From NCBI GenBank assembly GCA_051874695.1, contig JBJEGC010000007.1, positions 231,465 through 295,464 of the forward strand: DNA of 64,000 nt, written 5' to 3'. The notes under the pieces are model-generated. The model saw only the letters and a program-made list of their open reading frames with translations, had not been told where the DNA came from and ran no database searches. This document shows, one piece after another, positions 10,661-64,000 of the stretch; position 1 is the stretch's first letter; every line of letters starts with the position of its first letter. This DNA comes from Candidatus Bruticola sp. GTDB lineage: Bacteria; Vulcanimicrobiota; Xenobia; Xenobiales; Xenobiaceae. The position numbers and the translations under genes are program-made.

Positions 10661-10872
10661 TTAATATTTCCTTTATCATGTTTGGTTTCAGCAACTGGGC
10701 AAGTTAAGTGAGCAGAAATTCGCCTGTATTAGCGTCATAAAGAAGGCGCCGTCCAGTCTTGAATCTCTTCTTGGGTGAGGAGATTAGGCTGCACGGCGCT
10801 CCTGATTAGTTTTGGGCGTCAGCACGGAAACAGCCGACGGCAAGAAATTAATTTGTATCGGAGCAGGGCAAA

Positions 10873-17177: not shown

Positions 17178-17288
17178 CAGCTTGTCTTAACGAACAGCAA
17201 AAAAGAATTACAACTTTTCGCTTGTGGATAGGGCGGAGTTTTTTTAGTGTACAGAGGTGCGAAGGTGCATTTTAAAGAGAAAAATACT

Positions 17289-31332: not shown

Positions 31333-31349
31333 AAAGGAGAGATTTCTTT

Positions 31350-32051
31350 ATGGGATTTGTAGAGCTTTCAGAAACTGCTCCAATGAACAGATTGGACTGT
31401 CAAGAATGTACAGATAAATTATTAGATTATGAAGACGGTTTGCTGAGTAGTGCTGATGCAGCAAAAGTTAGAACCCATTTGGAAGAATGCGCGGAATGTA
31501 GCCGTTATCAGCATGCTCTCCGGGAAGGGTGGAAAAATCTAGGGTTGGTTTTCCCTCAAGACATTGAGCCGGATCCCAATTTTAAAATTCGCTTTTGGAA
31601 AACTGTAGGACAAGAAGCAAATTCCGTTAAGCTGATAGATTTGCAGCAAGAGTTAAAGAAGAAAAATAAGCGTTTGCGCTATTGGAGCAGTTTAGCCGCA
31701 GTGGCTTCTTTTGTTCTAATTGGCGGAGCTGTGTTGTGGAATGTTGCTTTTAACAGCAGCAACTTGTCGCCTGCGGAACAGAGCCAAGCTAATTGGCGTT
31801 ATTCTGCTTCAGTTTCGTCTGAAGTAAACGGCCCGGCAAAGTTAGTTCCGGCACTGTACCGTGTCGGCAGTCGTTCTGTTAGCAATGAAGCTGAGCCCTA
31901 TTATACAGAATATGTTGTGGCTGATGAATTCTCTGCCGATATGCAAGATTCGAGTGACAGTTTTACCTACGCCGATTACGATCAAGATTACGGTATGTCT
32001 CAGGAACTCCTAGATATGGCTTTTAATGAAGCTGCAGGTGTCCAAAATTAA
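31350..32051 (+). CDS. Membrane anti-sigma factor (zf-HC2 type)
   Basis: 233-aa ORF, 17 nt after the sigma gene. Has the motif CQECTDKL..(26 aa)..HLEECAECSRY and a single TM helix LAAVASFVLIGGAVLWNV. Confidence 0.7.
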   Translation: MGFVELSETAPMNRLDCQECTDKLLDYEDGLLSSADAAKVRTHLEECAECSRYQHALREGWKNLGLVFPQDIEPDPNFKIRFWKTVGQEANSVKLIDLQQELKKKNKRLRYWSSLAAVASFVLIGGAVLWNVAFNSSNLSPAEQSQANWRYSASVSSEVNGPAKLVPALYRVGSRSVSNEAEPYYTEYVVADEFSADMQDSSDSFTYADYDQDYGMSQELLDMAFNEAAGVQN

Positions 32052-46725: not shown

Positions 46726-49122
46726 TTAGTAGTTGGCGAACATTTTGACCATCACTTTGCGATGGGCAGAAGTAGCCAAAAGTTTGTTAATGTAGGAAGG
46801 ATCGAAGGTCATTTCCACACTTTTGGCTTTATATGAAATGTTGCCCTTGTCGTCCGTCTTGGTGGCTTCACCGTCAGCTTGCGGATCTTTTCCGTAAGCG
46901 ACCATGGAGCCGGTCAGATTTAGGCGGCTGTCTTTGCCTATGTCGACATTGATATTGCCGCAAGCGTAGATAACACCAGCAATTTCCTGATCGGAGTAGT
47001 TAATACTCTGATAGCGGCTGAGCAGTCCGGCCAACTGCTGAGTTTTGTACGTTTCATAGTTTTCGGTCTGCTCGGCAGGAGGAACGAACTTGTCGCTCAT
47101 GTTGACATTGGTAATGGAAGCCATTTCTTGATTGCTGCTGCTACCTTCCTCAATTTTAGTTTGAGCTGCAGCCTTACCGGCATTGTACAATTTTTTAATA
47201 GCCTGGTAGAATTCGCAGGTAGACGTATTATGATTTTCCGCCGGTATACATACCGTATAGATGCCTATTCTCCAGTCAAATCTGTATTCATATGTGTCAC
47301 AAGAACACATTACTACTTTTGGATCGTTTGCTATGTAGTTACTTAACGTATCTTGGCCCAACATACCTTCAGAGTAAACTTGAGCCATTAGAGCTCTGCC
47401 TTTTTCGGTATTTATAAAACCTGTTATACCGGAGGTACTTTTCTCTGAGCTGCAGTAGGCACGTCCGCCGTTTATGCAACTGCTGCATCCGTGTATAATA
47501 GGTACACCTGAATTTTTGAGATCGGCAATATCAAGATCGTCCGAACTTACAGCTTCAACAAGTACCGGCTTTTCGTGGGCCACACCGGTGTCTGGATCGA
47601 TAGTAACGTTATCATACGGCTTGTTTGTGTCTTTATTGGGAGTGGGAGACACTTCTTCCATATGGGCGGTGGTATTGTAAATCGTCTCTAAGTTTACGTC
47701 GCCTTTAGCGTAAATGGAGACGCCGACGCCAGGATCCGATTCCAGAATGCTGGGACCTTGTATGCTGATATTGCCTTCGGCGGTAATAGCCCCGTTGCCG
47801 ATAGTGGCTCCGGAAATGGTAATATTGCCGGTGCCGGTCAGAATAGTTGTGTTGTTGTCACCCTGATTCTTGCTGGAAAATCCCACAATAGGACGGGTGC
47901 CGTATTCGTTTATATCGGAACGAATTAACAGATCGCCTTCAACGTACATGTTTCGGTCGAACATGATGGCTAAATTGTCGTTGTCGACGGTCATGTTGGT
48001 GGTAGTATTGCCAATTATCTCGTAGCCACTGTCAGGAAGAGTCTTTCCGTAAGGGTATATCTCTCCGGGATAATGGTGTAGTTCGTTTTTACCGGAGGAG
48101 TTTCTTACCCATACGTAAGTGCCGGCTGACAGTTTCGTGTCTTTTTCAGTGGCTCGGGGAATATCTTCCCAGGATAGAGCCGTAAAGTTCTTACCCGAGC
48201 TGCTCTGTTCACTCTTTACAGTTTGGGGTTTTTTACTGTTTACTTTGAACGAATCTCCGTAATAGACGGTGGCTCCATTTTCGATTTTGAAGTTGTCGTC
48301 ATTTTTGCCAACTTTTAAATTTATTTTGCCCAAAGAGCGCATGTTGGGCGCTGCAGAACCGTCTGAGGAAATTAAAGAAAATGATTCTACTTTGGCTGTA
48401 ATGTCGCCAGCAGCACTGACTACTGAATCGGAATTTAAGAAGTCGGGATCGAGGGACACATAAAGTTCCAGCACCTGTTGGGTGTAGCCCGAGTCTTCGT
48501 TGATAGGGTTATCTAAAGTAGCGTCGCGTACGGCTTCGCCGCTGAAACCTTCTACAATAAGGTTGCAGGTGGCTTTAGGAATTGTAACCGCCTGTACGTT
48601 TTCGTTAGGAGTAAAGACCGTCTTACCGTTGCTGGTGACATGTTTGCCCATGACTACGCCGTTTTTGTCGGCGGGGTAGGCAAAGCGGGGAACGGTATTG
48701 AAAAGGTTGTTGGTTGAAATGTAGGGAGACTCGATTTTGTTGGCGCTATTTTTCATGCCATCTAAACCGTCGTCTCCGTCTTCGCAGTTGAACTTAATGC
48801 GAAATACGGACTTCTTGCCACTGACACTGGTTACAATGCCCCAGACATTGCCTTCCTTTTCTTTCACCTCAAAATTGTTGACTTTTAACTCGTAAGGTGA
48901 AGAAGGGTTACCTTTCCAAAGAATATTGCTCTGCAGACGAGTAATGGCGTACTGGGCACCGGAATGCGCAGCCATAAGAGCGTTTTCTTTGTCGTAGAAA
49001 TTGTTGGTCATCCTTAAACTGCCGAGGTTCGAATAAACAACCGAGCTCAGGAGCATCATAACTAAGACAACTGCCAGCATTGTAGTTATCAGTACAATAC
49101 CTTTTTTCCGTTCCTTCAGCAT
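46726..49122 (-). CDS. Large PilX-N-domain surface protein, paralog 1 of 6 (putative pilus-associated adhesin; Cys-rich cassette)
   Basis: 798-aa ORF with GGAGG 5 nt upstream. The N-terminus MLKERKKGIVLITTMLAVVLVMMLLSSVVYSN...ALMAAHSGAQYAI matches the PilX_N pattern as I recall it (basic-Gly-hydrophobic helix, then A..AA.SG). There is no prepilin G/FTLxE site. Shares the SILESDPGVGVSIYAKGDVNL and YSDQEIAGVIYA.GNINVDIG blocks with the other five copies. Confidence 0.75.
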   Translation of the reverse strand: MLKERKKGIVLITTMLAVVLVMMLLSSVVYSNLGSLRMTNNFYDKENALMAAHSGAQYAITRLQSNILWKGNPSSPYELKVNNFEVKEKEGNVWGIVTSVSGKKSVFRIKFNCEDGDDGLDGMKNSANKIESPYISTNNLFNTVPRFAYPADKNGVVMGKHVTSNGKTVFTPNENVQAVTIPKATCNLIVEGFSGEAVRDATLDNPINEDSGYTQQVLELYVSLDPDFLNSDSVVSAAGDITAKVESFSLISSDGSAAPNMRSLGKINLKVGKNDDNFKIENGATVYYGDSFKVNSKKPQTVKSEQSSSGKNFTALSWEDIPRATEKDTKLSAGTYVWVRNSSGKNELHHYPGEIYPYGKTLPDSGYEIIGNTTTNMTVDNDNLAIMFDRNMYVEGDLLIRSDINEYGTRPIVGFSSKNQGDNNTTILTGTGNITISGATIGNGAITAEGNISIQGPSILESDPGVGVSIYAKGDVNLETIYNTTAHMEEVSPTPNKDTNKPYDNVTIDPDTGVAHEKPVLVEAVSSDDLDIADLKNSGVPIIHGCSSCINGGRAYCSSEKSTSGITGFINTEKGRALMAQVYSEGMLGQDTLSNYIANDPKVVMCSCDTYEYRFDWRIGIYTVCIPAENHNTSTCEFYQAIKKLYNAGKAAAQTKIEEGSSSNQEMASITNVNMSDKFVPPAEQTENYETYKTQQLAGLLSRYQSINYSDQEIAGVIYACGNINVDIGKDSRLNLTGSMVAYGKDPQADGEATKTDDKGNISYKAKSVEMTFDPSYINKLLATSAHRKVMVKMFANY

Positions 49123-49393: not shown

Positions 49394-51774
49394 TCAGAAG
49401 TTGTTGTACATTGAACACATAAGCTTACGCCTGGCATTGGAAGCCATAAAAGCGTTCATATAATCGGCATCTAAAGTTAATCCTATAGTGTTGGCTTTAA
49501 TCTTTATATTGCCGCGATCGCTGTTCCCTTCAGGGCCTCCCTTACTCGGATCTTGACCGTAGGCCACCATGGCCCCGTTTACATTCAGAGTGCTATTTTC
49601 GCCTATATCGACGTTTATATTGCGCCAAGCGTAGATCATGCCGGATATATCCTGATCCGAATAGCGCAGCTGGCCGTAACGCTTGAGGAGGCTGTTCAGC
49701 TGCTGCTGTTTGTAATCGCGGAAGTTTTCACTGACCACCTTATCGTCGACAAATTTTTTGGCTTTTTTGGCTTCCAAGTTATTGTCGATAGTAATTTGGT
49801 TAGCGGGATTTTCATCACCGTATCCTGCTTGGTAGCAGGTTATCCAGTTGCTTGAATTACAGTAATGAGTGACAGCTAAGTTAACTTCGTTATCTGCTAT
49901 GGCAGCTTCAATAGCGCTGTTTATTTTGGCTTTCTTGCCCTCAGTATCGCCTAAAATGTCTTCCGAATCGGGATCAGGAATATCTAATAAAGTGGTTCCT
50001 TCTGGGGGATCGATGCGCGCAGCATAGTTCTGGTATAAGTAGTGCTCCAAGCAGGCCTCGACTTCGCTGTCGGCTATGTCGTCACAGTTTGACCCTGAGT
50101 GCAACTTATTCCTTAAATAGGAAACTGCTCCGTTAAAAGTGTCGTTGTCGGAATCGTAAGTGAAATAAGAATTGGCTGCATTGGCCGTGAAGTCTATGTT
50201 TTTATTTTGTTCCTGTACGGCCTGAGTGGCACTGTCAATGGGAAGAAAATTGACATCTTCTTTAGCATAGACGGAAACGCCCAGTCCGGGATCCGATTCT
50301 AAAATGCTGGGACCTTGCAAAGAGACGCTGCGCTCTGAAGTAATGGATCCGCTGCCTAAAGTAGCCCCTTGAATGGAAACGTTGCCGTTGGCACTGAGAA
50401 TGGGATCGTTGTCGGTGGGGGAGTTTTTAATGAAGGCCACTACCGGACGGGTAATTTCGCTGCAGCTGTCATCGTATCTAATTTCGATGGGGCCGTTTAC
50501 CTTTATGTTGTTGCTGATAATGATGGTCGCATTAGAGGTATCAATGGTGAAACCGTCGCTGCTGCTGACCGGATGGGCAACATTGTTTTGCTTTTTGAAT
50601 CTCGAGCGTTTTCCTCTTTTCTTTTTTACTTCGGCGTTAGGGTCGCTGTCATAACGAGAGAGGGTGTAGCCGCTGTTTTCGCCGCTGTTCTTTTTCCAAA
50701 CGTAAATACCGCCTTCACGAGTTTCGTAATTTTTGCTGGTATCCGCTTTAGTTACGTCGTCCCATTTAATTCGAGCAATGTCGTCTTTGTATTCATCTGA
50801 AGATTTTATAATGCTGAAATTGGAGCCAGTAACTTGTCCAAATTTGGCTTCTTTGTCATTTAGTTTTACTTTGCCGCCGGAAACGGCCTCGCCGTTGTCA
50901 AAAACTATGTTGCTATAGTTAAGATCCATGTCGCGCAGACTGTGGATGCGGGGAGCAGAAGTACTTTGAGCGCTTTTTATGTTGATATTTTCGGCGCTGG
51001 CTTTAAGATAACCGCCTGCTCCGAGTACGGAGTTGGTGTAAGAATAGTTTGGATCGAAAGTAAAATAAACTTCCATGACATTGCGGCAGACACCACTGCT
51101 GAAACCTGCCGAGCAGTCTAAAGCGTTCTGTATACCGATCATGTTTTTCAGGGAAAGATCGCGCACTCCGTTGCCGGAAAAGCCTTCTCCACAATAAGGC
51201 GGCAGGTTGACTTGGGAAGTTCAAAGCCGACGGTGCCGTCAGTTACCTTATGGCTAGTTTTACCGTATTCATCTTGATAAGTTTTGGTTTTAAGTATGCC
51301 GTCGGAGTCGGCCTCGTATACGTTGCGCACGGCGCTGCTGTATAGATTGTTTACTGATACGTAGGGAGATTTTATCAGGTAATTTTTATCGGAAGTATTG
51401 TTCATATTATCGAAGCCATTTTCGCCGTCTTCATAATTGAATTTAATGCGGAAAAATGACCGACGTCCGTTTTGAGTAGTGAGCATGCCCCAAACATTGC
51501 CGTCTTTTTCGGTAACTTCCAATCCCACATTGGAATTATACAATTTGCTGTTAGGATCGCATCCTTGCCAAGTGATATTATCCTGCAGTTTGGTAAGAGC
51601 GTAATCGACTCCGGACTGTGCTGCCATGAGAGCTTCTTCTCTGGCGTAGAAATTAGAAGTGAGACACATACCGCCGAAGTTGGAATAAACGACTGAGCTG
51701 AGCAACATAAGTATTAAAACTATGGTCAGCATAGTTGTTATCAGTACGATTCCCTGCTTGCGCTTGGTGAGCAT
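49394..51774 (-). pseudogene. PilX-N-domain paralog 2 of 6, interrupted by a frameshift (track ORFs 51148-51774 and 49394-51166)
   Basis: The two overlapping ORFs together recapitulate the full family architecture (208 aa + 590 aa). Removing 2 nt from GTGGAGAAGGC at about 51183-51190 restores the family-consensus CRLIVEGFSGNGVRDLSLKNM. Confidence 0.75.
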
Positions 51775-52084: not shown

Positions 52085-54586
52085 TTAGAAGCTGGAGAAC
52101 ATAATTTGTTTCAGTTTTCTCCTGGCGTTTGTCGATATAAAAGCTCCCATGTAGTCGGGATCGAGAGTCATACCTACAGCTTTAGCATCTATTTTAATTT
52201 GGCCGCCTTCGCCGTTTCCGGGAGTGCTGTTGTTCGGATTACCTCCGTAAGCAACCATGGCGCCCGTCAAGTTGAGATTGCTGTTGGCACCAATATTTAT
52301 GTTAATATTGCGCCAGGCGTAAATGACTCCGGAAATATCCTGGTCGGAATACTTCACTTCTCCGTAGCGGATCATCAGCTCGTTAAGCTGGCTTTGCTTA
52401 TTTTCGCGGAAGTTTTGACTGACCAGGCTCTGATCGACATAGGTCATCACATTGCTCATGTTGCTGGGACTGAAATCGACGGCAGAATTACTGCTGGAAA
52501 TTGAAGGTCTATTAGTCCAATTTCCTCGGCCATTGTTGTTGCTGCTCCAGTTGTTCCTGTCTTTTAGATAATTTATTAGGTCTTGGGCTTTTTCCTTAAA
52601 CTCTTGGCGCTTCTGATTTATATCCCTCATTTTAGACTCAGATATAGCCCCAAAGTCGTTTATCTGCGTTAGACCGGACAACATTGTTCCACCTTTTGTG
52701 GTATCCAAATCGTCGAAATCGAATGCGGACTCAAACGCCTTGTTAAAAACATCGGAAAACTTTTCTTTTTCCCAGCCTTTGGGTCCTTTGCCTGAGGAGA
52801 AGTTCATAGTGGCACCCTGATCGTACCAAAATTCGTAAAATTCATTGAAGTAAGTGTCAATTAATCTATCGTCATAAAAAGGTGTATAATTACTAAAACC
52901 ATTCTCGCGGAAAGCCGAGGCGTAGCTTGACATGAGTGTCTTATAAGCATTTTTGGCGTCATTGAATTTGTTTTGGGCAGCTCCGGCGTCTTCCAGTTTG
53001 ACATCGTAATTTTTGTTGTTGCCGGGTTGGGCACTCATAGTGGGGTCGCTTTCAGCCAGTTGGGACGTCTCAAGCTCGGCTTTCTTTACGGTTTCGGTTA
53101 CATCTTCGATGGGCAGTAGGTTGACGTCGCCCTTGGCGTATACCGAAACGCCGACTCCGGGATCCGACTCTAAAATACTCGGCCCCTGTAGGGAAATGTT
53201 GCCGGCCGAAATTATGGAGCCGCCTCCTAAAGTGGCGCCTTCAATGAAAATGTTGTTATCAGAAGTTATAAGCGGGTAGTTGCCAGAGTCGTCTTCCAGG
53301 AAAGCCACGATGGGGCGAGAAGCTCCGCTTTCTTTGTCGTAGCGGACAATAAAAGACGAGGTTTCACCGTTGGAAGCAACAGACAGATTTCCAGAAATTT
53401 TCATGGTTTGGGAATCAAAGTCAATCTCTACGCCGGGTAGTTCCTTAGCTGTTACTTTAGTTTTGGCCGTATCTGCTGGAATAGTGGTACCCGGGGGGAA
53501 GTTTCCGTCGTAGCGGAACAAGATATTCGCTTTACCGCTTTGGTCACTGGGATCTTTCTCCCAGCAGTAAGTGCCGGCCGCAACCTTGTTGAAGGTTTTT
53601 CCCTTGCATTTATCTTGTATCGATTCCCAGGTAATTTGAGCGAAGTTGCTGCTGTCTCTGCTGGTAGAAACAGTGTAATTCGATTTAGCGGGATTGGATA
53701 CTTTAATAGTGCTGCTTTTAGCTGAGACAATCTCTCCGTCGGACATATCGAGCAGACCGGTATCAATGGTAGCACTGTTCAGAGTGCGCATTTTAGGAGA
53801 AGTACTGCCTTTGGCGTTGCTGGCTCTGATTAGGTCGGCAGTTATAGTCAGATCACCGGCAGCACTGGCTACTGAGTCGGTGAATTGTTCTTCTGAGTCC
53901 AGAGTTAAGTAAGCTTCAGAGCGAATGGACGTCTGTCCGGAAAACTCGGAGTAGCGTAAGCTGGCTACATCTTTTAAATCTAAATCGCGTAGGGAATTGC
54001 CTGCAAAACCTTCCGCTATTAAGTAGCAGCTGCCTTTGCCTATACGGAAACCGAGTGATCCGACGGCTTCTGTATGCTTGATGCCGCAAGAATCGCTGAC
54101 TTCTTGAAGCGTGGTGGTGCCGTCAGCAGAAGCTGTATAAACTTTGGTAGGAGTACTGTTGAATAAGTTGTTTACCGAAACATAGGGAGAAGCGATTAGC
54201 TCGGAAGATCCGCTGTTATTGAGACCGTCCAGACCATTGGCGCCGTCTTCATAATTGAATTTTAGGCGGAAGAAGGACCGGTTGCCGTTGGCTGTAGTTA
54301 TACAGCCGAGCACGTTGCCGTTTTTTTCAATAACTTCTAAGCCTTTGCTTGTTTCTGAAACAGTTTTGTAATCGGCAGCTCGCCAGGTAATATCGTCTTG
54401 TAGCCTGGTAATGGCGTACTGTATGCCTGATTGAGCCGCCATAAGAGCCTCTTCTCGTCCATAGAAGTTAGAGGCCAGGCGCATACCGCCCAAGTTAGAA
54501 TATACAACTGAACTGAGCAGCATAATTATCAATACAACTGTTAGCATTGTAGTTATTAAAACAATGCCGCGCTTGTCTTTCAGCAT
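52085..54586 (-). CDS. Large PilX-N-domain surface protein, paralog 3 of 6
   Basis: 833 aa from ATG 54586 (MLKDKRG), 9 nt after GGAGG. The track start at 54595 is a TTG lying against the RBS. Same N-terminal anchor and scaffold blocks as the other copies, with a unique central cassette at about 52490-53080. Confidence 0.75.
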   Translation of the reverse strand: MLKDKRGIVLITTMLTVVLIIMLLSSVVYSNLGGMRLASNFYGREEALMAAQSGIQYAITRLQDDITWRAADYKTVSETSKGLEVIEKNGNVLGCITTANGNRSFFRLKFNYEDGANGLDGLNNSGSSELIASPYVSVNNLFNSTPTKVYTASADGTTTLQEVSDSCGIKHTEAVGSLGFRIGKGSCYLIAEGFAGNSLRDLDLKDVASLRYSEFSGQTSIRSEAYLTLDSEEQFTDSVASAAGDLTITADLIRASNAKGSTSPKMRTLNSATIDTGLLDMSDGEIVSAKSSTIKVSNPAKSNYTVSTSRDSSNFAQITWESIQDKCKGKTFNKVAAGTYCWEKDPSDQSGKANILFRYDGNFPPGTTIPADTAKTKVTAKELPGVEIDFDSQTMKISGNLSVASNGETSSFIVRYDKESGASRPIVAFLEDDSGNYPLITSDNNIFIEGATLGGGSIISAGNISLQGPSILESDPGVGVSVYAKGDVNLLPIEDVTETVKKAELETSQLAESDPTMSAQPGNNKNYDVKLEDAGAAQNKFNDAKNAYKTLMSSYASAFRENGFSNYTPFYDDRLIDTYFNEFYEFWYDQGATMNFSSGKGPKGWEKEKFSDVFNKAFESAFDFDDLDTTKGGTMLSGLTQINDFGAISESKMRDINQKRQEFKEKAQDLINYLKDRNNWSSNNNGRGNWTNRPSISSSNSAVDFSPSNMSNVMTYVDQSLVSQNFRENKQSQLNELMIRYGEVKYSDQDISGVIYAWRNININIGANSNLNLTGAMVAYGGNPNNSTPGNGEGGQIKIDAKAVGMTLDPDYMGAFISTNARRKLKQIMFSSF

Positions 54587-54727
54587 GTATACCAACCTCC
54601 TTTGCCTAAATTAAATGTCAATTGAGAAAATATGCGGTAACTTTTCTCAGAACTGTCTCATTTTTTATCATGTCTGATGCTTTTCTTTGAGATAAGCGCC
54701 ACTTTCTGCGTGCTATTGTACAAACAA

Positions 54728-54770
54728 AGCCCGCTTCCTTTAGCAAATCTTTACTAAAAGAGTGCGGGCT
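54728..54770 (-). terminator. Terminator-like hairpin downstream of paralog 4 (conserved intergenic module)
   Basis: AGCCCGC (54728-54734) pairs with GCGGGCT (54764-54770). The minus strand continues TTGTTTG. Homologous hairpins occur at 57441-57482 and 60141-60180. Confidence 0.5.
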
Positions 54771-54826
54771 CTGCGTATTTTTCGTTTTTTTTGACTACTG
54801 CCAAGAGGCGTAGCTCAAAAGAGCGG

Positions 54827-57304
54827 TTAGAAGCTGGAGAACATAATCTGCTTAAGTTTTCTCCTGGCATTTGTTGATATAAAGGCTCCCATGTAATCGG
54901 GGTCTAGAGTCATGCCCACAGCTTTGGCATCTATCTTAATTTGGCCGCCTTCGCCGTTGCCGGGAGTACTGCTGTTAGGATTGCCTCCGTAGGCGACCAT
55001 AGAACCCGTTAAATTGAGAGTGCTGTTGGAGCCAATATTAACGTTAATGTTGCGCCAAGCGTAAATAACTCCGGAAATATCTTGGTCAGAGTATTTCACT
55101 TCTCCATAGCGGGCCATCAATTCGTTAAGTTGGTTCCCTTTGTTTTCGCGGAAGTTCTGACTGGCTAGATTATGGTCGACATAATTTTGCACATTGTTCA
55201 TGTCGCTGGGAGTGAATTCAGCGCTGGGAGTAGTTTCAGTAGGAGAAGAAGGAGTAGCATTGCCATTATCTACAACTTCCCAGTGATCGAATGCGAGTAG
55301 ATATCGCATAGCTTCCCTGGCTTCTTCGTAAAACTCTTCGCGGGCTTCTTTAAGATCCTCTATTTGATCTTTACTGCAATTATTGTAGCGTCCGAAATTA
55401 CTCACATCGAGATAAGGGGAGTCTTCGGAGTTGTTTCTTACGTTTACTTGTATCATTTGTAAATCGAAGGCCATAGGACCGCTATATTGCTGAGGAGTCC
55501 ATGCGGGAAGCATTTGCTTGCGCTCAAAGTAATTAGTAGCAGCTTGGGAGTGCCAATAGGAATAGAAACTAGCAAAACTGGCAAGATTTCTCTCTTCATC
55601 GCTATAGATGTTACTTATCTTTTTATAGGCCTTCATGAGGTCTTTATAGGCATCTAGTGCCTCTTCGTACTTTTTCTGGTATTTTTTTTCATTTTCAAGT
55701 ACAGCAACTTTACCTGTGTTTGCTTGGCCTTCTTCTTTAGTTGGCTTTGAGTTTATGGTGGAATCAACTTCTGACTGTTGAAATTTCTCCGGCTCAGCCT
55801 TTTTTACTGTTTCGGTTGCGTCTTCAATGGGCAACAGGTTGACGTCGCCTTTAGCGTATACCGAAACGCCAACTCCAGGATCAGATTCTAAAATGCTCGG
55901 CCCCTGCAGGGATATATCGCCGGCTGAAATTATGGAGCCGCCTCCCAAGGTGGCGCCTTCAATGAAAATGTTGTTGTCGGAAGTTATAATTGGGTAGTCG
56001 CCGGAGCTATTTTGCAAAAAGGCCACTATAGGGCGAGAAGCTCCACCTTCCTTGTCGTAGCGGATAATAAAAGATGAGGTCTCCCCATTGGAAGCAATGG
56101 AACAATTTCCGGAAATTTTCATGGTCTGGGAAGTAAAATCGATTTCGATGCCAGGCAATCCGTTGGCCGTTACTTTAGTTTTGGCCGTATCTGTTGGAAT
56201 AGGGGTGCCCGGAGGGAAGTTGCCTTCATAACGGACTAATATGTTAGTTTTGCCACTTTTGTCATCGGGATCTTTTTCCCAGCAGTAAGTGCCAGCTGTA
56301 ACCTTATTGAAGCTTTTGCCCTTGCATTTGTCTTGTACCGATTCCCAGGTAATTTGAGCAAAGTTGCTGCTGTCTTTGCTGGTAGAAACGGTATAGTTCG
56401 ACTGTTGGGGATTGGAAACTTTAATGTCGCTGCTATTAGCTGAGACGATCTCTCCATCGGACATATCGAGCAGAGCCGTATTGATGGTAGCACTGTCCAA
56501 AGTGCGCATTTTAGGGGAAGTGCTGCCTTTGGCATTGCTGGCTTTAATTATGTTGGCATTTATAATTAGATTGCCAGCGGCACTGGCTACAGAGTCGGTA
56601 AATTGTTCTTCTGAGTCCAGAGTTAAGTAAGCTTCAGAGCGAATGGAAGTCTGGCCGGACAATTCGGAGCTACGTAAGCCGGCTAAGTCTTCTAAAGCTA
56701 AATCGCGCAGAGAATTGCCAGCAAAACCTTCTGCTATTAAGTAGCAGCTGGCTTTACCTACGCTAAAACTGGAAACGCTGTCGGCCTCCGTGTGCTTGGT
56801 TCCGTAAGAATCGGTAACTTCTTTAAGTTTTGTAGTACCATCAGCAGAAGCCATGTAAACTTTGGCTGGAGTACTGTTGAACAAGTTGTTTACTGAAACG
56901 TAGGGAGAAGCGATTAGTTCGGAGGAGCTGCTGTCATTAAGACCGTCCAAACCACCGGCTCCATCTTCATAGTTGAACTTCAGGCGGAAGAAGGACTTGT
57001 TGCCGTTGGTGGTAGTTATACAGCCTAGCACGTTGCCGTTTTTTTCAATAACTTGCAAACCTTTGTTTGTTTCTGAAATAGTTTTACTGTCGGCAGCCCG
57101 CCAGGTAATATCATCTTGTAGTCTGGTAATGGCGTAATGTAGGCCCGATTGAGCCGCCATAAGGGCCTCTTCTCTTCCGTAAAAGTTAGAGGCCAGGCGC
57201 ATGCCGCCTAAGTTAGAGTATACAACCGAACTGAGCAGCATAGTTACCAATACAACTGTTAGCATTGTAGTTATTAAAACAATACCACGCTTGTTTTTCA
57301 GCAT
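54827..57304 (-). CDS. Large PilX-N-domain surface protein, paralog 4 of 6
   Basis: 825 aa from ATG 57304 (MLKNKRG), 9 nt after GGAGG. The track start at 57340 adds 12 non-homologous residues. The flanks are closely similar to paralog 3, with a unique cassette at about 55235-55798. Confidence 0.75.
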   Translation of the reverse strand: MLKNKRGIVLITTMLTVVLVTMLLSSVVYSNLGGMRLASNFYGREEALMAAQSGLHYAITRLQDDITWRAADSKTISETNKGLQVIEKNGNVLGCITTTNGNKSFFRLKFNYEDGAGGLDGLNDSSSSELIASPYVSVNNLFNSTPAKVYMASADGTTKLKEVTDSYGTKHTEADSVSSFSVGKASCYLIAEGFAGNSLRDLALEDLAGLRSSELSGQTSIRSEAYLTLDSEEQFTDSVASAAGNLIINANIIKASNAKGSTSPKMRTLDSATINTALLDMSDGEIVSANSSDIKVSNPQQSNYTVSTSKDSSNFAQITWESVQDKCKGKSFNKVTAGTYCWEKDPDDKSGKTNILVRYEGNFPPGTPIPTDTAKTKVTANGLPGIEIDFTSQTMKISGNCSIASNGETSSFIIRYDKEGGASRPIVAFLQNSSGDYPIITSDNNIFIEGATLGGGSIISAGDISLQGPSILESDPGVGVSVYAKGDVNLLPIEDATETVKKAEPEKFQQSEVDSTINSKPTKEEGQANTGKVAVLENEKKYQKKYEEALDAYKDLMKAYKKISNIYSDEERNLASFASFYSYWHSQAATNYFERKQMLPAWTPQQYSGPMAFDLQMIQVNVRNNSEDSPYLDVSNFGRYNNCSKDQIEDLKEAREEFYEEAREAMRYLLAFDHWEVVDNGNATPSSPTETTPSAEFTPSDMNNVQNYVDHNLASQNFRENKGNQLNELMARYGEVKYSDQDISGVIYAWRNINVNIGSNSTLNLTGSMVAYGGNPNSSTPGNGEGGQIKIDAKAVGMTLDPDYMGAFISTNARRKLKQIMFSSF

Positions 57305-57440
57305 GTATACTAACCTCCTTTGCAAAAAATTTAATATCAATTGAGAGAACTTTTGGCAGATTTTTTGTATTATTTGCCTCTGTTTATCTCTCAGCCGTTA
57401 TCTAACACAGAGTTTCTTTCTCTAGTTATTTCGCAAACAA

Positions 57441-57482
57441 AGCCCGCGTCCTTTATTTAAGTTTAATAAAGAAACGCGGGCT
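57441..57482 (-). terminator. Terminator-like hairpin downstream of paralog 5
   Basis: AGCCCGCGTCCTTTATT..AATAAAGAAACGCGGGCT forms a long imperfect stem. Confidence 0.55.
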
Positions 57483-57553
57483 TTGCAGTATTTTTATACT
57501 GTTAATTTAAGCTCAGGCGGAGTCGCTAAGAAGCACGCCGACTAAGAAGTAGT

Positions 57554-59986
57554 TTAGAAGCTGGAGAACATGGTCACCTTCAGTTTGCGTCTAGCATTGG
57601 CTGACAGGAAAGCTCCCATGTAATCGGGATCGAGAGTCATACCTATACTGCCTGCATTGATAGTAATGGTTCCTTTGTTATCTTTTCCGGGAGTTTTTGT
57701 TTTGGGATTTGCTCCGTAGGCAACCATAGCTCCGGTAAGATTGAGGGTGCTGTTCTGGCCTATATCGGCATTGATGTTGCCCCAAGCGTAAATAACGCCA
57801 GAAATATCCTGATCAGAATATTTAAGATTGCCGTAACGGGTCAGGAGGTCAGCCAATTGAGCTTCTTTATTGTCGCGGAAGTTGTCGGTGGCCAGATCTT
57901 TATCGATGCAGTCCTGCACATTGTTGATGTCGCTGGGAGAAAGTGACGTATCTGCTTCGGTGGAACCAGTAGGTTGGGTTATAAGCTCCCAGTTATCAAT
58001 GTTCCATAAATATAAATCCAGCCTTCCGGATTTAGAATACAGTAAAGTGGAAAGCTTGTCAGCTTCTGTTTTGTTCATGGTGTTGCAGCCGTTATAAGCC
58101 GGATTTTCTGTCCAGTCTGAATCCCATGGTTCAACTTCACCTATATCATTGTAGAAAGCACTGACCATGGTCTTTCTGTAATCGCAAAATTTATCAAATA
58201 TCTCTTTTGCAGCTTCGATATGTGACTGCTCTTGGAATAAACCTGTGCTAACAGAGGGAGGGTTGCCTTCTGGACCAAAAGGGCCCTGACCGGGTCTGGG
58301 AGGCCTTTCTTGATATTGTAAGGAGGCTATGATATCATTAAAAATTTCACTCCTCAGGTCTTCGTAATCGGTGGAACTTTTGAAGACGTAAACTTGTTTT
58401 GTGCCACTTTCTCCAGTTGTTCCTGATCCGGAAGTTGTGCCGTTGTTGTCGGCTGCTGGCGGATTAGTGGGTTTTATTGTGTCTTTAACTGTAGTGGTCA
58501 GATCTTCGATAGGCAGTAGATTGACATCTTTTTTAGAGTAGATTGAGACACCTACGCCGGGATCCGATTCCAAAATGCTCGGTCCTTGCAGAGAAATGTT
58601 GCCCTCAGAAGTAATAGAGCCTCCTCCCAAAGTAGCGGCCTGTAGGAATATATCACCTGAAGAACTGATAATAGGAGAAGTTTTTGTGTTCGAATTCTCC
58701 AATAGGGCCACAATCGGTCTGGAAGCGCCGCTGTCTTTGTCGTAGCGCACTATGAAAGATGAGTCTTTGCCGTCAGCTACCACCAGAAGATTCTTCGATA
58801 TTTTCATAGTTTGGGTGTCGTTATCTATGGTCATGCCGGGCAGGCTGGTTATAGTAACTGACTTAGCGTCGGCAGGGATAGGCTCGCCGGGAGGATAGTT
58901 GCCCTGGTAACGCTTTAGAACGTTCTTTTTTGTTTCGGGATTGACACTCCATACATAAGTGCCTGCCTCCAGCTTTTCGTATTCCTGGCCGGGAGAATTG
59001 GCTTTAGTTATGTCATCCCACAAAATTTGCGCGAAGTTGTCAGAATCGCTGCTGCTTTGAGCCTTGTAAGTGGCATCTTTGTCGATAGCTTGGCCGTTTA
59101 TGGTGTAGTTGCAGTCTTTACCGTAGTAGAATTGTCCGTTGGCAAAATCAATTTTTTCGCTTTGTACGGTCAGATTCTTTAAGGTGCGGATTTTGGGAGC
59201 AGATCCGCCTTTAGCGTTATCTACGCGCAGAATAGAAGAAGTTGTTTTTAAATCGTTGGCGGCGCAGGCTACCGAATCGGTAAACTGTTCGTCGGCTGCC
59301 AAGCCCAGGTAGCTTTCTACCGTTATGCAAGCAGCATTGCAGCGATCTTTGGGCATATTTAGCATATTTTCTAAACTCAGATCGCGCACTCCGTCGCCGG
59401 CAAAACCTTCTACTACCAGATAGCAGCTCGATTTTTCTAAAACGAAGCTGCTGGAGTTTTCCGCCTCTTGACGGTTTTTGCCGTATTCGTCTTTGTAGCT
59501 TTTCAGCGTGAGGCTGCCTTCTTTGGAAGCGGTGTAAACTTTTGTGGAAGTACTGCTGAAAAGGTTGTTGACGGAAACGTAAGGAGAAGGAATTTTGTCT
59601 GAGCTAGAGCTGTCGTTCAAACCATCGAAGCCGTTATCGCCGTCTTCGTAATTGAACTTAATGCGGAAGAAGGAGCGGCGTCCGTTTTTGCTGTCGAGCA
59701 TGCCGACTACGTTGCCGTTCTTTTCCATAACGCTCAGCCCTTTAGAGCTATCGGAAATAGTTTCGCTTTCGTCGCAGCCCTTCCAGGTAATGTTGTTCTG
59801 CAGTTTGGTAATGGCGTACTGGACGCCCGATTGGGCGGCCATAAGAGCCTGCTCGCGTCCGTAGAAGTTAGAAGCCAGACGCATGCTGCCTAGGTTAGAG
59901 TATACAACTGAACTTAGCAGCATAATTACCAATACTACTGTTAGCATTGTGGTTATTAAAACAATGCCGCGCTTGTTTTTCAGCAT
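57554..59986 (-). CDS. Large PilX-N-domain surface protein, paralog 5 of 6
   Basis: 810 aa from ATG 59986 (MLKNKRG), 9 nt after GGAGG. Near-identical flanks to paralog 6, with a unique cassette at about 58010-58385. Confidence 0.75.
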   Translation of the reverse strand: MLKNKRGIVLITTMLTVVLVIMLLSSVVYSNLGSMRLASNFYGREQALMAAQSGVQYAITKLQNNITWKGCDESETISDSSKGLSVMEKNGNVVGMLDSKNGRRSFFRIKFNYEDGDNGFDGLNDSSSSDKIPSPYVSVNNLFSSTSTKVYTASKEGSLTLKSYKDEYGKNRQEAENSSSFVLEKSSCYLVVEGFAGDGVRDLSLENMLNMPKDRCNAACITVESYLGLAADEQFTDSVACAANDLKTTSSILRVDNAKGGSAPKIRTLKNLTVQSEKIDFANGQFYYGKDCNYTINGQAIDKDATYKAQSSSDSDNFAQILWDDITKANSPGQEYEKLEAGTYVWSVNPETKKNVLKRYQGNYPPGEPIPADAKSVTITSLPGMTIDNDTQTMKISKNLLVVADGKDSSFIVRYDKDSGASRPIVALLENSNTKTSPIISSSGDIFLQAATLGGGSITSEGNISLQGPSILESDPGVGVSIYSKKDVNLLPIEDLTTTVKDTIKPTNPPAADNNGTTSGSGTTGESGTKQVYVFKSSTDYEDLRSEIFNDIIASLQYQERPPRPGQGPFGPEGNPPSVSTGLFQEQSHIEAAKEIFDKFCDYRKTMVSAFYNDIGEVEPWDSDWTENPAYNGCNTMNKTEADKLSTLLYSKSGRLDLYLWNIDNWELITQPTGSTEADTSLSPSDINNVQDCIDKDLATDNFRDNKEAQLADLLTRYGNLKYSDQDISGVIYAWGNINADIGQNSTLNLTGAMVAYGANPKTKTPGKDNKGTITINAGSIGMTLDPDYMGAFLSANARRKLKVTMFSSF

Positions 59987-60140
59987 ATACACTTACCTCC
60001 TTTGTGTAAATTTTGACGGCGCAATTTAATGGCACTTCAGATAATTTTTTTGTAGTTTTTTTGTGATTCTTCGTTTTTTGTCAGTTCTGCCTCTATTTTT
60101 TCGAAAAAGAGGCCTCTTTTAGAATTATTGCACAAACAGA

Positions 60141-60180
60141 GCCCGCGTCCTTTATCAAATCATAATAAAAGAACGCGGGC
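60141..60180 (-). terminator. Terminator-like hairpin downstream of paralog 6
   Basis: GCCCGCGTCCTTTAT..ATAAAAGAACGCGGGC. Confidence 0.55.
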
Positions 60181-60254
60181 CCTGCGTTTTTTTTGATACT
60201 ATTGCGACTTAGTTTGGGCGGATCTGCCAAGAAGCATATCGCCCAAGCTGCGGT

Positions 60255-62654
60255 TTAGAAGCTGGAGAACATGGTCAGCTTCAGTCTGCGTCGAGAGTTG
60301 GCCGACAAGAAGGCTCCCATGTAATCGGGATCGAGGGTCATGCCTATGCTACCTGCATTGATAGTAATGGTTCCTTTGTTATCTTTTCCGGGAGTTTTTG
60401 TCTTGGGATCGGCTCCGTAGGCGACCATGGCTCCAGTGAGGTTGAGGGTGCTGCTTTGGCCTATATCGGCGTTGATATTGCCCCAAGCGTAAATAACGCC
60501 AGAAATGTCTTGATCGGAATATTTGAGTTTGCCGTAGCGGGTCATAAGATCGGCTAATTGGGCTTCTTTGTTGTCGCGGAAATTGTCGGTGGCCAGATCT
60601 TTGTCGATGCAGTTCTGTACATTGTTGATGTCGCTGATAGAAAGCTCCGTATCTGCTTCGGTTGAACCTGTGGACGTAGATTTGGTTGCCGATTCCCAAT
60701 TGTTTATGTTACGGAGGTAGTTGCGTATATCGTTTACCGGATGGTGAGAATCTTCATCACAAAGCTCTATCATCAAAGCATGCCACTCGGTCATGTTCAG
60801 GCCGTCACGCTCTTCAGAGCTGATTGAATCTGAAAAAGATTGATTGAGCTCGTTAGGATTAGTATCTCCGCCATTTTTTACCGTGGTTTCATATTTTTCC
60901 AATTGCGTGCAGTATTTTTCATATATAGATTTAGAAATATTGTAGCTATTGTCATCATTGAAGTTATCGAGACCGAACTTATTTCTTATATGATTGATTA
61001 CTAGTTGAAAAGTGTCCAGCTTCAATTGATCGTATGCTTCGTCTTGTTTAAGAATGTAAACTTCTTCTGTGCCGCTTCCTCCCGTTGTTACCGACCCGGA
61101 AGTGGTGCCGTTGTTGTCGGCCGTTGACGAATTAGCAGGGCTTATCTTGTCTTTGACTGTAGTGGTCAGATCTTCGATAGGCAGCAGATTGACGTCTTTT
61201 TTAGAGTAGATTGAGGCACCCACACCGGGATCCGACTCTAAAATGCTTGGCCCTTGTAGAGAAATGTTGCCCTCGGAAGTAATGGAGCCACCTCCCAAAG
61301 TGGCGGCCTGTAAGAATACGTCACCTGAAGAACTGATAATAGGAGAAGTTTTGGTGTCCGAATTTTCTAATAGGGCTACGATCGGTCTGGAAGCACCGCT
61401 GTCTTTGTCGTAGCGGACTATGAAAGACGAGTTGTCGCCGTCGGCTACCACCAGAAGATTCTTCGATATTTTCATGGTTTGGGTGTCGTTGTCTATGGTC
61501 ATGCCGGGCAGGCTGGTTATGGTAATCGACTTAGCGTCGGCAGGAATAGACTCGCCAGGAGGATAGCTGCCCTGGTAACGCTTTAGAACGTTCTTTTTAG
61601 TTTCGGGATCGACGCTCCATACGTAAGTGCCTGCTTCCAGTTTTTCGTATACCTGGCCGGGAGAATTGGCTTTAGTTATGTCATCCCACAAAATTTGTGC
61701 GAAGTTGTCAGAATCGTTGCTACTTTGAGCCTTGTAAGTAGCATTTTTGTCGATAGCTTGGCCGTTTATGGTGTAGCTGCAGTCTTTGCCGTAGTAAAAC
61801 TGTCCGTTGGCAAAATCAATTTTATCGCTTTGCACGGTCAGATTCTTCAAGGTGCGTATTTTAGGAGCAGATCCGCCCTTAGCGTTATCTACGCGCAGAA
61901 TAGAAGAGGTTGTTTTTAAATCGTTGGCGGCGCAGGCTACCGAATCGGTAAACTGTTCGTCGGCTGCCAAGCCCAGGTAGCCTTCTACCGTTACGCAAGT
62001 AGCATTGCAGCGATCTTTGGGCATGTTCAGCATATCTGATAAATTTAAATCGCGCACTCCGTCGCCGGCAAAGCCTTCCACCACCAAATAACAACTCGAT
62101 TTGTCTAAAACGAAGCTGCTGGAGTTTTCCGCCTCTTGGCGGTCTTTGCCGTATTCGTCTTTGTAGCTTTTCAGTGTGAGGCTGCCCTCTTTGGAAGCAG
62201 TGTAAACTTTAGTGGGAGTACTGCTGAAAAGATTGTTGACAGAAACGTAAGGAGAAGGAATTTTGTCTGAGCTGGAGTTGTTGTTCAGACCATCGAAGCC
62301 GTTTTCGCCGTCCTCGTAGTTGAACTTAATGCGGAAGAATGAACGGCGTCCGTTTTTGCTGTCGATCATACCGACCACGTTGCCGTTCTTTTCCATAACA
62401 CTCAGCCCCGTGGAGCTGTCGGAAATAGTTTCACTTTCGTCGCAGCCTTTCCAGGTAATGTTATTCTGCAGCTTTGTAATGGCATACTGAACGCCCGATT
62501 GGGCGGCCATAAGAGCCTGCTCGCGTCCGTAAAAGTTGGAAGCCAGCCTCATACTGCCCATGTTTGAGTAGACTACCGAACTAAGCAGCATAATTACTAA
62601 CACTACCGTTAGCATGGTAGTGATTAGCACTATGCCCCGTTTGTTTTTTAACAT
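60255..62654 (-). CDS. Large PilX-N-domain surface protein, paralog 6 of 6 (first in transcription order)
   Basis: 799-aa ORF, with AAAGGAGG 5 nt upstream of the ATG. Unique cassette at about 60715-61055. Confidence 0.75.
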   Translation of the reverse strand: MLKNKRGIVLITTMLTVVLVIMLLSSVVYSNMGSMRLASNFYGREQALMAAQSGVQYAITKLQNNITWKGCDESETISDSSTGLSVMEKNGNVVGMIDSKNGRRSFFRIKFNYEDGENGFDGLNNNSSSDKIPSPYVSVNNLFSSTPTKVYTASKEGSLTLKSYKDEYGKDRQEAENSSSFVLDKSSCYLVVEGFAGDGVRDLNLSDMLNMPKDRCNATCVTVEGYLGLAADEQFTDSVACAANDLKTTSSILRVDNAKGGSAPKIRTLKNLTVQSDKIDFANGQFYYGKDCSYTINGQAIDKNATYKAQSSNDSDNFAQILWDDITKANSPGQVYEKLEAGTYVWSVDPETKKNVLKRYQGSYPPGESIPADAKSITITSLPGMTIDNDTQTMKISKNLLVVADGDNSSFIVRYDKDSGASRPIVALLENSDTKTSPIISSSGDVFLQAATLGGGSITSEGNISLQGPSILESDPGVGASIYSKKDVNLLPIEDLTTTVKDKISPANSSTADNNGTTSGSVTTGGSGTEEVYILKQDEAYDQLKLDTFQLVINHIRNKFGLDNFNDDNSYNISKSIYEKYCTQLEKYETTVKNGGDTNPNELNQSFSDSISSEERDGLNMTEWHALMIELCDEDSHHPVNDIRNYLRNINNWESATKSTSTGSTEADTELSISDINNVQNCIDKDLATDNFRDNKEAQLADLMTRYGKLKYSDQDISGVIYAWGNINADIGQSSTLNLTGAMVAYGADPKTKTPGKDNKGTITINAGSIGMTLDPDYMGAFLSANSRRRLKLTMFSSF

Positions 62655-62986: not shown

Positions 62987-64000
62987 ATGATGAATGGTAG
63001 GACTTTTTTTGTCAGCTTAGCGATTTTCTCGATCCCGCTGGCTGGATCGGGCCTCTCTTGGGCTGTTGGCGCAGATTCCGCCTGCCAAGAAGGCACCGGT
63101 GCTAAACAAAGGCATGAGGCCTCTGAAGTCCTAGGGTTTAATGGTTTAGAAAATACTTCTGTCGTCACCTATACAGAAAAGAGTGAGGAATCGATGAACA
63201 TAAACGTAGAACGTTCTTCCGACTTGTTCCGCGCCAATTCAGTGGTGCAGAATAATGGCGCTGCCGAGTCTAAGCAGACGGCTTCCAAGGCTTCTGCTCC
63301 GGCCGTTCCCGTAGATAGTTTCTCTTTAAATAGTTCCGAGAGCAAAGAGGCCGCCACTGGTCTTCCTAAGCTCAGCGCTGCTCAGGTTAAAGCTGAGTGT
63401 TCAGCCGTGCAGCCTGAAAGCACCGATAAAAAACAGATTCTCTTCCAGTTTGACAGCCGCGGCTGCCCTCAGGCCGAGCTCAGCAATATCGGTCTCAAGG
63501 GCTCTTTCAACAATGAGACCGGCCTTTACGATCAGCATTGGAACGGCGATAAGATCGTTCCCATGCACGATGACGGCCGCAACGGAGATGCCGTGGCCGG
63601 AGACGGCGTTTATACCGCTGCCGTCGATTTGAAAACCGGACAAAACCAGCAATTCAGTTGGGGCGTGGTGGGCGACATCACCGGCAAAGACGGTAAAGTT
63701 CAGAACGCTCAGTGGTTGGTTATGAGCGAAACCAACCCCAATTTCAACTTATCAGATTCCTCAGTACAAACTTATGCTCCCATTCAGACCCATCTTTTCG
63801 GCGTACACAAAGAGGGAGAGGACGGTGTCCGCTTCCAGACTTGGTCTCCCGAAGTAGGTAAAGGCGACTTAGGTAGCTATAAGCTTTATGTTGAGATAAG
63901 TAACCCTCAAACCGGTGAAATCGAAGAGCGTCTGCCCATGGAGAAAAATGAGCAGAACGGTGTCTGGACTCTTACCCAGAACGACGGCTGGAGCAAGCTT
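62987..64000 (+). CDS. 5' part of a CBM48/GH13-type alpha-glucan enzyme (branching enzyme or pullulanase-like), truncated by the window end; not in the supplied ORF track
   Basis: My own translation gives an open frame from ATG-ATG at 62987 to 64000 with no stop. Residues from 63194 read MNINVERSS...KQILFQFDSRGCPQAELSNIGLKGSFNNETGLYDQHWNGDKIVPMHDDG..GVYTAAVDLKTGQNQQFSWGVV (AMPK/CBM48-like). They continue THLFGVHKEGEDGVRFQTWSPEVG...MEKNEQNGVWTL (the GH13 N-terminal CBM48 pattern). The start is ambiguous. 62987 gives a signal-peptide-like MMNGRTFFVSLAIFSIPLAGSGLSWAVGA but has no SD. 63194 has GAGGA 5 nt upstream. Confidence 0.5.
   Translation, partial: MMNGRTFFVSLAIFSIPLAGSGLSWAVGADSACQEGTGAKQRHEASEVLGFNGLENTSVVTYTEKSEESMNINVERSSDLFRANSVVQNNGAAESKQTASKASAPAVPVDSFSLNSSESKEAATGLPKLSAAQVKAECSAVQPESTDKKQILFQFDSRGCPQAELSNIGLKGSFNNETGLYDQHWNGDKIVPMHDDGRNGDAVAGDGVYTAAVDLKTGQNQQFSWGVVGDITGKDGKVQNAQWLVMSETNPNFNLSDSSVQTYAPIQTHLFGVHKEGEDGVRFQTWSPEVGKGDLGSYKLYVEISNPQTGEIEERLPMEKNEQNGVWTLTQNDGWSKL

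Follow-up and report, generated by a model that had tools for sequence, protein, structure and literature searches.

How did two neighbouring bacterial genes come to share nearly identical ends and to carry different middle parts? The question is raised by p5 and p6, two of six paralogous genes (p1-p6) that stand in tandem, all on the minus strand, between 46.7 and 62.7 kb of a 64 kb stretch of contig JBJEGC010000007.1 (hereafter the window). The host is a gut-associated bacterium of the class Xenobia (Vulcanimicrobiota), and among named organisms Candidatus Bruticola is closest to it. We consider it probable that homologous recombination shuffles an exposed module, here called the cassette, in alternative pilus-tip-like proteins. 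The parts of the two genes are as follows.

57554-59992, minus strand: p5 in the list of open reading frames (ORFs), with a GTG start; 57554-59986 from the conserved ATG (810 amino acids, aa)
57986-58393, minus strand: p5 cassette (136 aa), consisting of a VYVFK strand, a helical bundle and a NIDNWE strand; divergence continues to 57968
58394-58501, minus strand: p5 counterpart of the p6 linker
60255-62654, minus strand: p6 (799 aa), which opens the array and is the positional counterpart (orthologue) of gene 1 of related genomes
60693-61061, minus strand: p6 cassette (residues 532-654), consisting of a VYILK strand, a helical bundle and a NINNWE strand; divergence continues to 60669
61062-61169, minus strand: p6 linker before the cassette, of low complexity (Gly/Thr/Ser/Asn)

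The p5 and p6 genes form a sharply bounded mosaic

In a nucleotide alignment, p5 and p6 are ~90% identical on both sides of a sharply bounded block. The identity profile in 60-nt windows runs at 80-98% from about the start codon to ~58420 of p5 and ~61090 of p6, drops to 28-40%, which is the level of chance (~35%), at ~58390-58005 of p5 and ~61055-60712 of p6, and recovers to 80-95% from the right edge as far as the stop codons. The conserved portions of the alignment span ~1590 nt at the 5' end and ~430 nt at the 3' end. At the protein level, the N-terminal and C-terminal flanks are each 94% identical, in agreement with the original prediction of more than 90%, whereas the cassettes are only 22% identical from strand to strand (28-30% for cassette and linker together). 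The 22% value comes from an end-to-end alignment and refutes the idea that the cassettes would match as well as the flanks once gaps were handled properly.

The breakpoints can be placed at the codon level. On the left, similarity stops directly after GTT TAC (V-Y) at ~58388 of p5 and ~61055 of p6. On the right, it restarts at GGT TC. ACC GAA GCA GAT ACG (GSTEADT) at 57967 of p5 and 60668 of p6, and NI(D/N)NWE constitutes a small conserved island immediately ahead of this edge. The cassette limits first read from the letters (58010-58385 and 60715-61055) are accurate within a few codons. The predicted sharpness of the breakpoints holds for the codons at the edges but not for the approach to the left one, where the 35-residue Gly/Thr/Ser-rich linker is only ~80% identical and forms a softer zone. 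The N-x-x-N-W motif, which had been said to close the cassettes of p3, p4, p5 and p6, does so in p3, p5 and p6 and also occurs in p2; p4 has F-D-H-W in its place, keeping only the W plus a preceding Y-L, and p1 lacks the motif.

The synonymous divergence (dS) of the p5/p6 flanks is ~0.35 (range 0.15-0.6 per 40 codons), and the ratio of nonsynonymous divergence (dN) to dS is ~0.08. In the cassette, dN reaches 0.5-0.8, synonymous sites are saturated, and the two versions differ by several insertions or deletions (indels), including a 27-residue Pro/Gly loop. A similar mosaic is found in the p3/p4 pair, with flanks 84-93% identical and cassettes ~26-29% identical. p5 and p6 are the youngest pair of the array, as proposed earlier (94% identity in the N-terminal flank versus 84% for p3/p4), but a dS of ~0.35 is not young in absolute terms. 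The four cassettes of p3-p6 have a GC content of 0.37-0.42 and a third-position GC content (GC3) of 0.41-0.47 (0.41-0.42 in p5 and p6), compared with 0.47-0.49 and 0.50-0.59 in the p5/p6 flanks; a different gene pool, relaxed codon selection and the composition of a helical domain are candidate reasons.

An assembly chimera appears unlikely because the longest exact run common to p5 and p6 is 73 nt, so that every short read contained bases by which an assembler could tell the two genes apart. The same gene architecture also emerged from independent assemblies of many sister-species samples, including 23 contigs examined that carry one and the same allele (P0026).

The two cassettes are remote homologues with one predicted fold

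Are the two cassettes related? The end-to-end comparison (E ~1) is not significant alone. A profile comparison with hhalign, in which the p5 cassette was matched to the p6-type (type B) cassettes of relatives, gave 96% probability and E = 1.2e-9 over 116 columns, and the match includes the internal motif pair SKSIYEKYC / AKEIFDKFC. The earlier description of the cassettes as unrelated thus goes too far: by profile comparison and structure prediction, they are remote homologues of one module class with one predicted fold.

AlphaFold2 models of p6 and p5, with mean predicted local distance difference test (pLDDT) scores of 86.6 and 85.9, display matching architecture. In both models, an N-terminal helix (residues 2-64) is followed by a beta-rich body to residue ~491 and by the Gly/Thr/Ser linker, which is disordered at residues 509-528 (pLDDT <50). 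The p6 cassette is modeled as a strand (529-535), helices (539-648) and a second strand (653-659), mostly at pLDDT 83-93. The p5 cassette is modeled as a strand (529-535), a helix (539-559), a loop, two further helices (587-612 and 639-661) and a second strand (666-672), and a Pro/Gly-rich disordered loop lies within its helical bundle. The second strand bears the NW motif in both models and precedes a conserved helix-plus-beta C-terminal part. Thus, the cassette is predicted to be an autonomous strand-helices-strand domain that is inserted in a beta-rich scaffold. Its insertion point is the least conserved stretch of the whole family (conservation of 0.09-0.20 versus 0.4-0.7 elsewhere), and the apparent insert length at this site ranges from ~0 to ~260 residues across the family alignment.

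The array holds more than one cassette class. The cassettes of p3 and p4 constitute a second class (type A), and p1 and p2 carry two further classes. The profiles of type A and type B cassettes have no significant relation (probability 10%), and we do not claim homology of all cassette classes.

Recombination exchanges the cassettes in related bacteria

The family is apparently confined to metagenome-assembled genomes (MAGs) of Vulcanimicrobiota, UBP9 and Xenobia, plus a few bins labelled otherwise, and there are often several family loci per genome. Tandem arrays that have no pilin neighbours are found only in gut- or rumen-associated MAGs. A Bruticola MAG (locus L001) has an array of three genes, of which gene 1 corresponds to p5/p6, gene 2 to p3/p4 and gene 3 to p1, and a human-gut sister species has an array of four.

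Two strains of this sister species (loci L003 and L005) are ~99% identical over 22 kb except for two islands, namely the cassettes of gene 1 and gene 3. The gene 1 island (11578 to ~12028, ~450 bp) has sharp edges and ~40% identity; the cassette is of type A in one strain and of type B in the other. Its edges match those of p5/p6: one lies where strand 1 begins and the other shortly past the NW strand. The density of single-nucleotide polymorphisms is raised for ~200 nt on each side of the island, as is expected of an imported fragment with crossovers in the conserved flanks.

Database alleles of the sister species (P-numbers) extend this picture. The 25 alleles carry at least 10 cassette types, and their N-terminal flanks are 80-100% identical at this locus. 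P0010 and P0024 are 99.8% identical in the N-terminal flank, 21% in the cassette and 98% in the C-terminal flank, and the corresponding values for P0005 and P0026 are 99.4%, 22% and 100%. Conversely, the pairs P0014/P0017 (N-terminal flank 95%, cassette 99%, C-terminal flank 89%) and P0010/P0018 combine cassettes of 97-99% identity with flanks that differ by 5-11%. Like flanks with unlike cassettes, together with like cassettes on unlike flanks, require recombination, in a proof of the four-gamete type. Cassette exchange by recombination is therefore proven in the relatives. The type A cassette also occurs on more than one paralogous scaffold: in the window it is carried by that of p3/p4, and in the sister species by that of gene 1 (E = 1.7e-6 to 1.7e-5). 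The view that exchange rather than gradual drift produced the p5/p6 contrast is borne out by the flank dS set against 22% cassette identity and, chiefly, by this population evidence.

Within the two strains, the gene 3 island (L003 16650-17150 versus L005) concerns the Cys-rich, p1-type class, with a cassette that is 57% identical in amino acids between flanks that are 100% identical. For genes 2 and 4, cassette conservation between L003 and L005 is 99%, and hypervariability is therefore specific to certain paralogs.

The p5 gene is a recombinant

What was the origin of p5 within the array? The 5' end of the gene differs in its affinity from the rest.

59877-59986, minus strand: chimeric 5' end of p5; the initial ~110 nt of the gene and a further ~25 nt ahead of it resemble p4/p3

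This segment is 90-91% identical to p3/p4 and 80% identical to p6. Informative sites favour p4 over p6 by 17:4 in the first ~110 nt of p5, as opposed to 41:457 downstream (Fisher p = 9e-15). Hence, p5 is a recombinant, with its junction in the conserved part that encodes the N-terminal helix. Homology links the spacers p6-p5, p5-p4 and p4-p3 to one another and to the single spacer between genes 1 and 2 of L001, and the related Bruticola genome has three genes compared with six in this array. With L001 gene 1 as the outgroup, the p5 and p6 flanks are sisters at equal distance from it (30 versus 39 informative sites), and they are 91% identical to each other versus ~80% to the outgroup. L001 gene 1 matches p6 at 91-92% identity over the 5' end and the sequence upstream of it, and p6 is regarded as the positional orthologue of gene 1 because an alpha-amylase-like neighbour is conserved upstream of the array. 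We conclude that p5 probably arose when the conserved 5' ends of the ancestral genes 1 and 2 underwent unequal crossing-over; the p3/p4 pair would be of similar origin. In each pair, the cassette of one copy is weakly nearer to that of the L001 orthologue, and that of the other copy (p5 or p4) is more different: the p6 cassette shows 28% identity to its orthologue (E = 3e-5), and the p3 cassette is closer than that of p4 to the cassette of L001 gene 2.

For the order of events we infer two alternatives, in which the p5/p6 cassette was either replaced after the duplication or brought in with a captured foreign allele. In the latter case, a gene 1 allele from another strain or a close species would have integrated in tandem, with its own cassette, at the conserved 5' end and spacer, and the array would hold two alleles of the population side by side. 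The junction at +110, the lower GC and GC3 of the cassettes and the flank dS, which lies within the allelic range at this locus in the sister species, are in line with such a capture. However, the sister relation of the flanks and their 91% identity fit duplication within the lineage equally well, and the two orders are indistinguishable on these results. We regard allele capture as the less likely course, although one to be kept in mind, and it would be a variant of the recombination of pre-existing cassettes rather than a different mechanism.

Divergence in place, by point mutations and indels under extreme diversifying selection or relaxed constraint and with no exchange, is very improbable: the cassettes do share a predicted fold as remote homologues, the weak affinity of the p6 cassette to its L001 orthologue would allow fast vertical descent, and conservation across the family is lowest at the insertion site, but neutral change at a dS of ~0.35 leaves ~45-50% identity where 22% and multiple indels are observed, the edges are sharp instead of graded, and the relatives show an equal contrast between flanks that are 99-100% identical (dS ~0.01), beyond the reach of point mutation.

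No dedicated switching system was found

Is the variation programmed? A system that rewrites cassettes within a lineage, by gene conversion from silent donors, by a diversity-generating retroelement or by a shufflon, would be suggested by the modular architecture and the many cassette types, which resemble systems of the pilE/pilS kind, and the window covers 64 kb of a contig that is 322 kb long or more. Nevertheless, the searches speak against it. No silent cassette was found outside the array genes, either in the window (tblastn with 47 cassette queries) or in the relatives' loci including their 10-kb flanks (a set of nine cassettes), and the silent copies for which the original prediction suggested a search thus did not appear there. 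No reverse transcriptase or recombinase was found among the 47 ORF translations of the window, including seven array ORFs, that were compared with Pfam. Inverted repeats around the cassettes were likewise absent, the only pairs being short ones at chance level and terminator hairpins. A regular-expression scan of both strands at 46-63 kb yielded no G-quadruplex (G4) motif, and the array has no homopolymers or simple sequence repeats. Moreover, the identity of the P0026 allele on the 23 contigs from many samples indicates stable alleles rather than rapid switching. Programmed variation is accordingly given very little credence.

Three specific candidates were rejected. A diversity-generating retroelement is recognized by a reverse transcriptase and by a template repeat that differs from the variable repeat at adenines only; no reverse transcriptase was found among those 47 translations, and the cassettes are of unequal length, with differences at every type of base and identity at chance. 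A shufflon is recognized by inverted repeats around the variable segment and a nearby site-specific recombinase, and the searches of the window found neither. Silent donors of the pilE/pilS type are promoterless and truncated; the copies here are full length, with a ribosome-binding site (RBS) and a terminator, and the tblastn search found no such donors in the window.

A pilin-like N-terminus suggests a tip subunit

What kind of protein carries the cassettes? The N-terminus, MLKNKRG↓IVLITTMLTVVLVIMLLSSVVY (the arrow marks the cleavage site), comprises a short basic leader that ends in Gly and a hydrophobic stretch of ~20 residues within the long predicted helix. The Pfam model PilX_N (PF14341, cut-off 25.5 bits) is passed by p3 (27.5), p4 (29.8), p5 (32.2) and p6 (32.8), and p1 (23.7) and the p2 fragment (17.0) fall below the cut-off. 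At position +5, counted from the cleavage site, the residue is Thr and not Glu in all six paralogs (leader KRG↓IVLITTML). Glu5 is typical of the pilins of the filament body, and the tip subunits GspK and PilX lack it. The Thr residue is consistent with a tip-type subunit and does not fit an ordinary pilin. Among environmental Vulcanimicrobiota, the homologue is a single gene whose immediate neighbours are small genes bearing canonical G↓F(T/S)L(I/V)E prepilin motifs.

3609-10838 of locus L053: prepilin-motif neighbours of a single homologue; also in L031, L035, L050, L054 and L064

The proteins encoded by p1-p6 are most likely alternative large subunits, of the tip type, of a type IV filament (pilus or pseudopilus). 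Membership in GspK itself was rejected: the NCBIfam GspK model NF037980 scores 17-27 bits against a cut-off of 130 bits and covers only residues ~6-66, and Foldseek yields no GspK structure.

Layout and surroundings of the array

The other genes of the array and the putative terminators are as follows.

46726-49122, minus strand: p1, last gene of the array and most divergent copy, with the Cys-rich cassette class
49394-51774, minus strand: p2, in two ORFs, with a +2 frameshift (extra AA at 51185-51186)
52085-54595 (alternatively 52085-54586), minus strand: p3, with a type A cassette at 52544-53002
54827-57340 (alternatively 54827-57304), minus strand: p4, with a type A cassette at 55277-55708
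60140-60181, minus strand: terminator-like hairpin and U-run after p6, with homologues after p5 (57440-57483) and p4 (~54724-54774)

The hairpins after p6, p5 and p4 have folding energies of -26.6, -28.7 and -32.0 kcal/mol and z-scores of -4.8 to -7.9. A strong RBS, AAAGGAGG, sits 7-10 nt ahead of the conserved ATG in each copy; in p5, it lies just upstream of the ATG at 59986, and the GTG at 59992 is a less likely start. All copies but p2 look like separate, expressible genes because they have their own RBS and terminator-like hairpin. The frameshift of p2, in which AA is added between the codons of ...IVE and GFSG..., falls outside any homopolymer or repeat tract, and p2 is a probable pseudogene, or possibly an assembly error. 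In a promoter scan, sigma-70-like sites were not more frequent than in shuffled sequence (30 versus 24.7 +/- 5). Upstream of the array, a divergent gene for a secreted protein (~62990-64000, plus strand) runs off the end of the window; its relatives are ~1160 aa long, carry Alpha-amylase_C and are kept next to the array in all related genomes.

Elsewhere in the window, genes at 1074-4342, 7717-8700 and 14460-15590 encode proteins of lipid A and lipopolysaccharide synthesis (an LpxA-like acyltransferase, LpxD, LptF/G and LpxB), and the envelope is therefore diderm. The LpxB protein has 815 aa, and its C-terminal ~450 residues have no Pfam match. A 690-aa protein with 13 Sel1 repeats (Pfam E = 7e-124) is encoded at 17247-19319; Sel1-repeat proteins are often linked to host interaction. 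An extracytoplasmic function (ECF) sigma factor with an adjoining zf-HC2 anti-sigma factor is encoded at 30631-32051, and a second, larger zf-HC2 protein lies a few kb off at 36866-38440. These genes stand ~15-30 kb from the array.

Mechanism and its limits

We propose the following mechanism. The proteins would consist of a PilX/GspK-type helix that lacks Glu5, a ~450-residue beta-rich scaffold, a disordered linker, a helical module of ~125-190 residues and a C-terminal beta domain. The cassette may be the exposed part of the tip-like subunit that determines specificity or antigenicity, and the population would maintain many ancient cassette versions that have diverged far from one another. 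By ordinary homologous recombination, these versions would move between alleles and occasionally between paralogs, with crossovers landing in the highly conserved DNA that flanks the cassette. In the array, unequal crossing-over at the 5' ends of the ancestral genes 1 and 2 would have made p5, and p5 and p6 would later have come to bear different versions of one cassette class. The location at the pilus tip, the exposure at the surface and diversifying selection as the driver are presumed parts of this mechanism.

Several points weigh against this proposal. No donor for either cassette was found among 120 family members, nor was a donor cassette found elsewhere in the window, and a phmmer search with the p5 cassette found none among 1.84 billion representatives, in a library that collapses alleles at 50% identity. 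We infer exchange at p5 and p6 themselves from the relatives; the window's own species is sampled once, and its database alleles P0001 and P0002 occur on one contig only. The scaffold has no relative in the PDB or in BFVD (viral models) by Foldseek of the p6 model, where nothing was better than E ~0.1, and a family-profile search of PDB sequences also gave no relative. The role as a tip adhesin consequently depends on two things, the N-terminus and the genes next to the homologues in distant relatives, and these neighbours are indirect evidence for the pilus assignment. The 64 kb window has no pilus machinery or other pilin genes, and the N_methyl hits of the prepilin-motif neighbours in L053 are below Pfam cut-offs.

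Two further results of these searches were set aside. The only two phmmer hits of the p5 cassette are spurious, as both are tandem-repeat proteins in which eight short matches add up to an inflated score. A word-index search with both cassettes concatenated returned nothing and missed even the window's own proteins, so that its negative outcome is unreliable.

A bolder extension of the proposed recombinational shuffling is conceivable, and we think it doubtful. In this extension, six tip subunits would be expressed singly or mixed, their modules would be reshuffled within the lineage, and each module would be a new receptor-binding fold. If so, gene conversion would operate among expressed paralogs or from donors elsewhere in the genome, and the modules would set the specificity for host, glycan or partner cell, or the susceptibility to phage.

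Comparison with known systems

The array belongs to a known class, that of mosaic, recombining hypervariable blocks in the exposed proteins of host-associated bacteria, and represents it in a new family and an uncultured phylum. In Helicobacter pylori, babA, babB and babC have conserved 5' and 3' segments and a divergent middle, and recombination or gene conversion in the conserved ends makes chimeras of them and swaps the functional middle. The present genes resemble this Hop/Bab system as full-length paralogous surface-protein genes with conserved ends and a divergent middle. However, the Bab proteins are outer-membrane beta-barrel adhesins encoded at dispersed loci, whereas a tandem array of genes for pilin-like proteins is found here, what varies is a discrete helical domain inserted in the protein, and the documented exchange is one between strains and not within a lineage.

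The Neisseria pilE/pilS and PilC1/PilC2 systems are similar in that a type IV pilus protein of a host-associated bacterium is varied via conserved flanks and that several paralogs exist (PMC4877100, PMC3960869). In contrast to the complete copies without G4 motifs in the array, pilS loci are promoterless and truncated, and their conversion is unidirectional, frequent and G4-dependent. Furthermore, the variable part here lies in a tip-like subunit of ~800 aa and not in the major pilin, and PilC/PilY1 proteins lack a pilin-type N-terminus.

GspK and PilX share with the array proteins an N-terminal hydrophobic helix of the class III type that lacks Glu5, with PF14341 above the cut-off. The globular part of GspK, as Korotkov and Hol reportedly described in 2008, bears an inserted alpha-helical domain. 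Unlike GspK and PilX, the present proteins are 3-4 times larger, have no fold match in the PDB and are not accompanied by a type II secretion or minor-pilin operon in the window. The hypervariable regions of Neisseria opa and the pneumococcal pspA/pspC genes provide another parallel, since these surface-antigen genes are exchanged by transformation and their ancient divergent blocks in conserved frames are reassorted by homologous recombination. They differ in family, fold and phylum, and in the present case the block is an autonomous domain with beta-strand anchors and the locus has been amplified into a tandem array.

Implications

What does the array mean for the biology of Xenobia? Members of this class are host-associated and belong to a phylum that to our knowledge has almost no experimental biology, and searches of the literature on Xenobia, UBP9 and Bruticola found nothing on pili or on this protein family. 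A scaffold with no solved or viral structural relative means that structural or functional prediction starts from almost nothing. Within that scaffold, a helical domain held between two conserved strands can be replaced by versions of less than 25% identity, or by another class, with the scaffold untouched, and this modularity is useful for thinking about the engineering of pilus-displayed binders. Clustering at 50-90% identity conceals allelic diversity of this kind. The array locus looks like the most rapidly diversifying surface structure of Xenobia; it is a strain-resolving marker and flags the module that is most likely to contact host, phage or partner cells.

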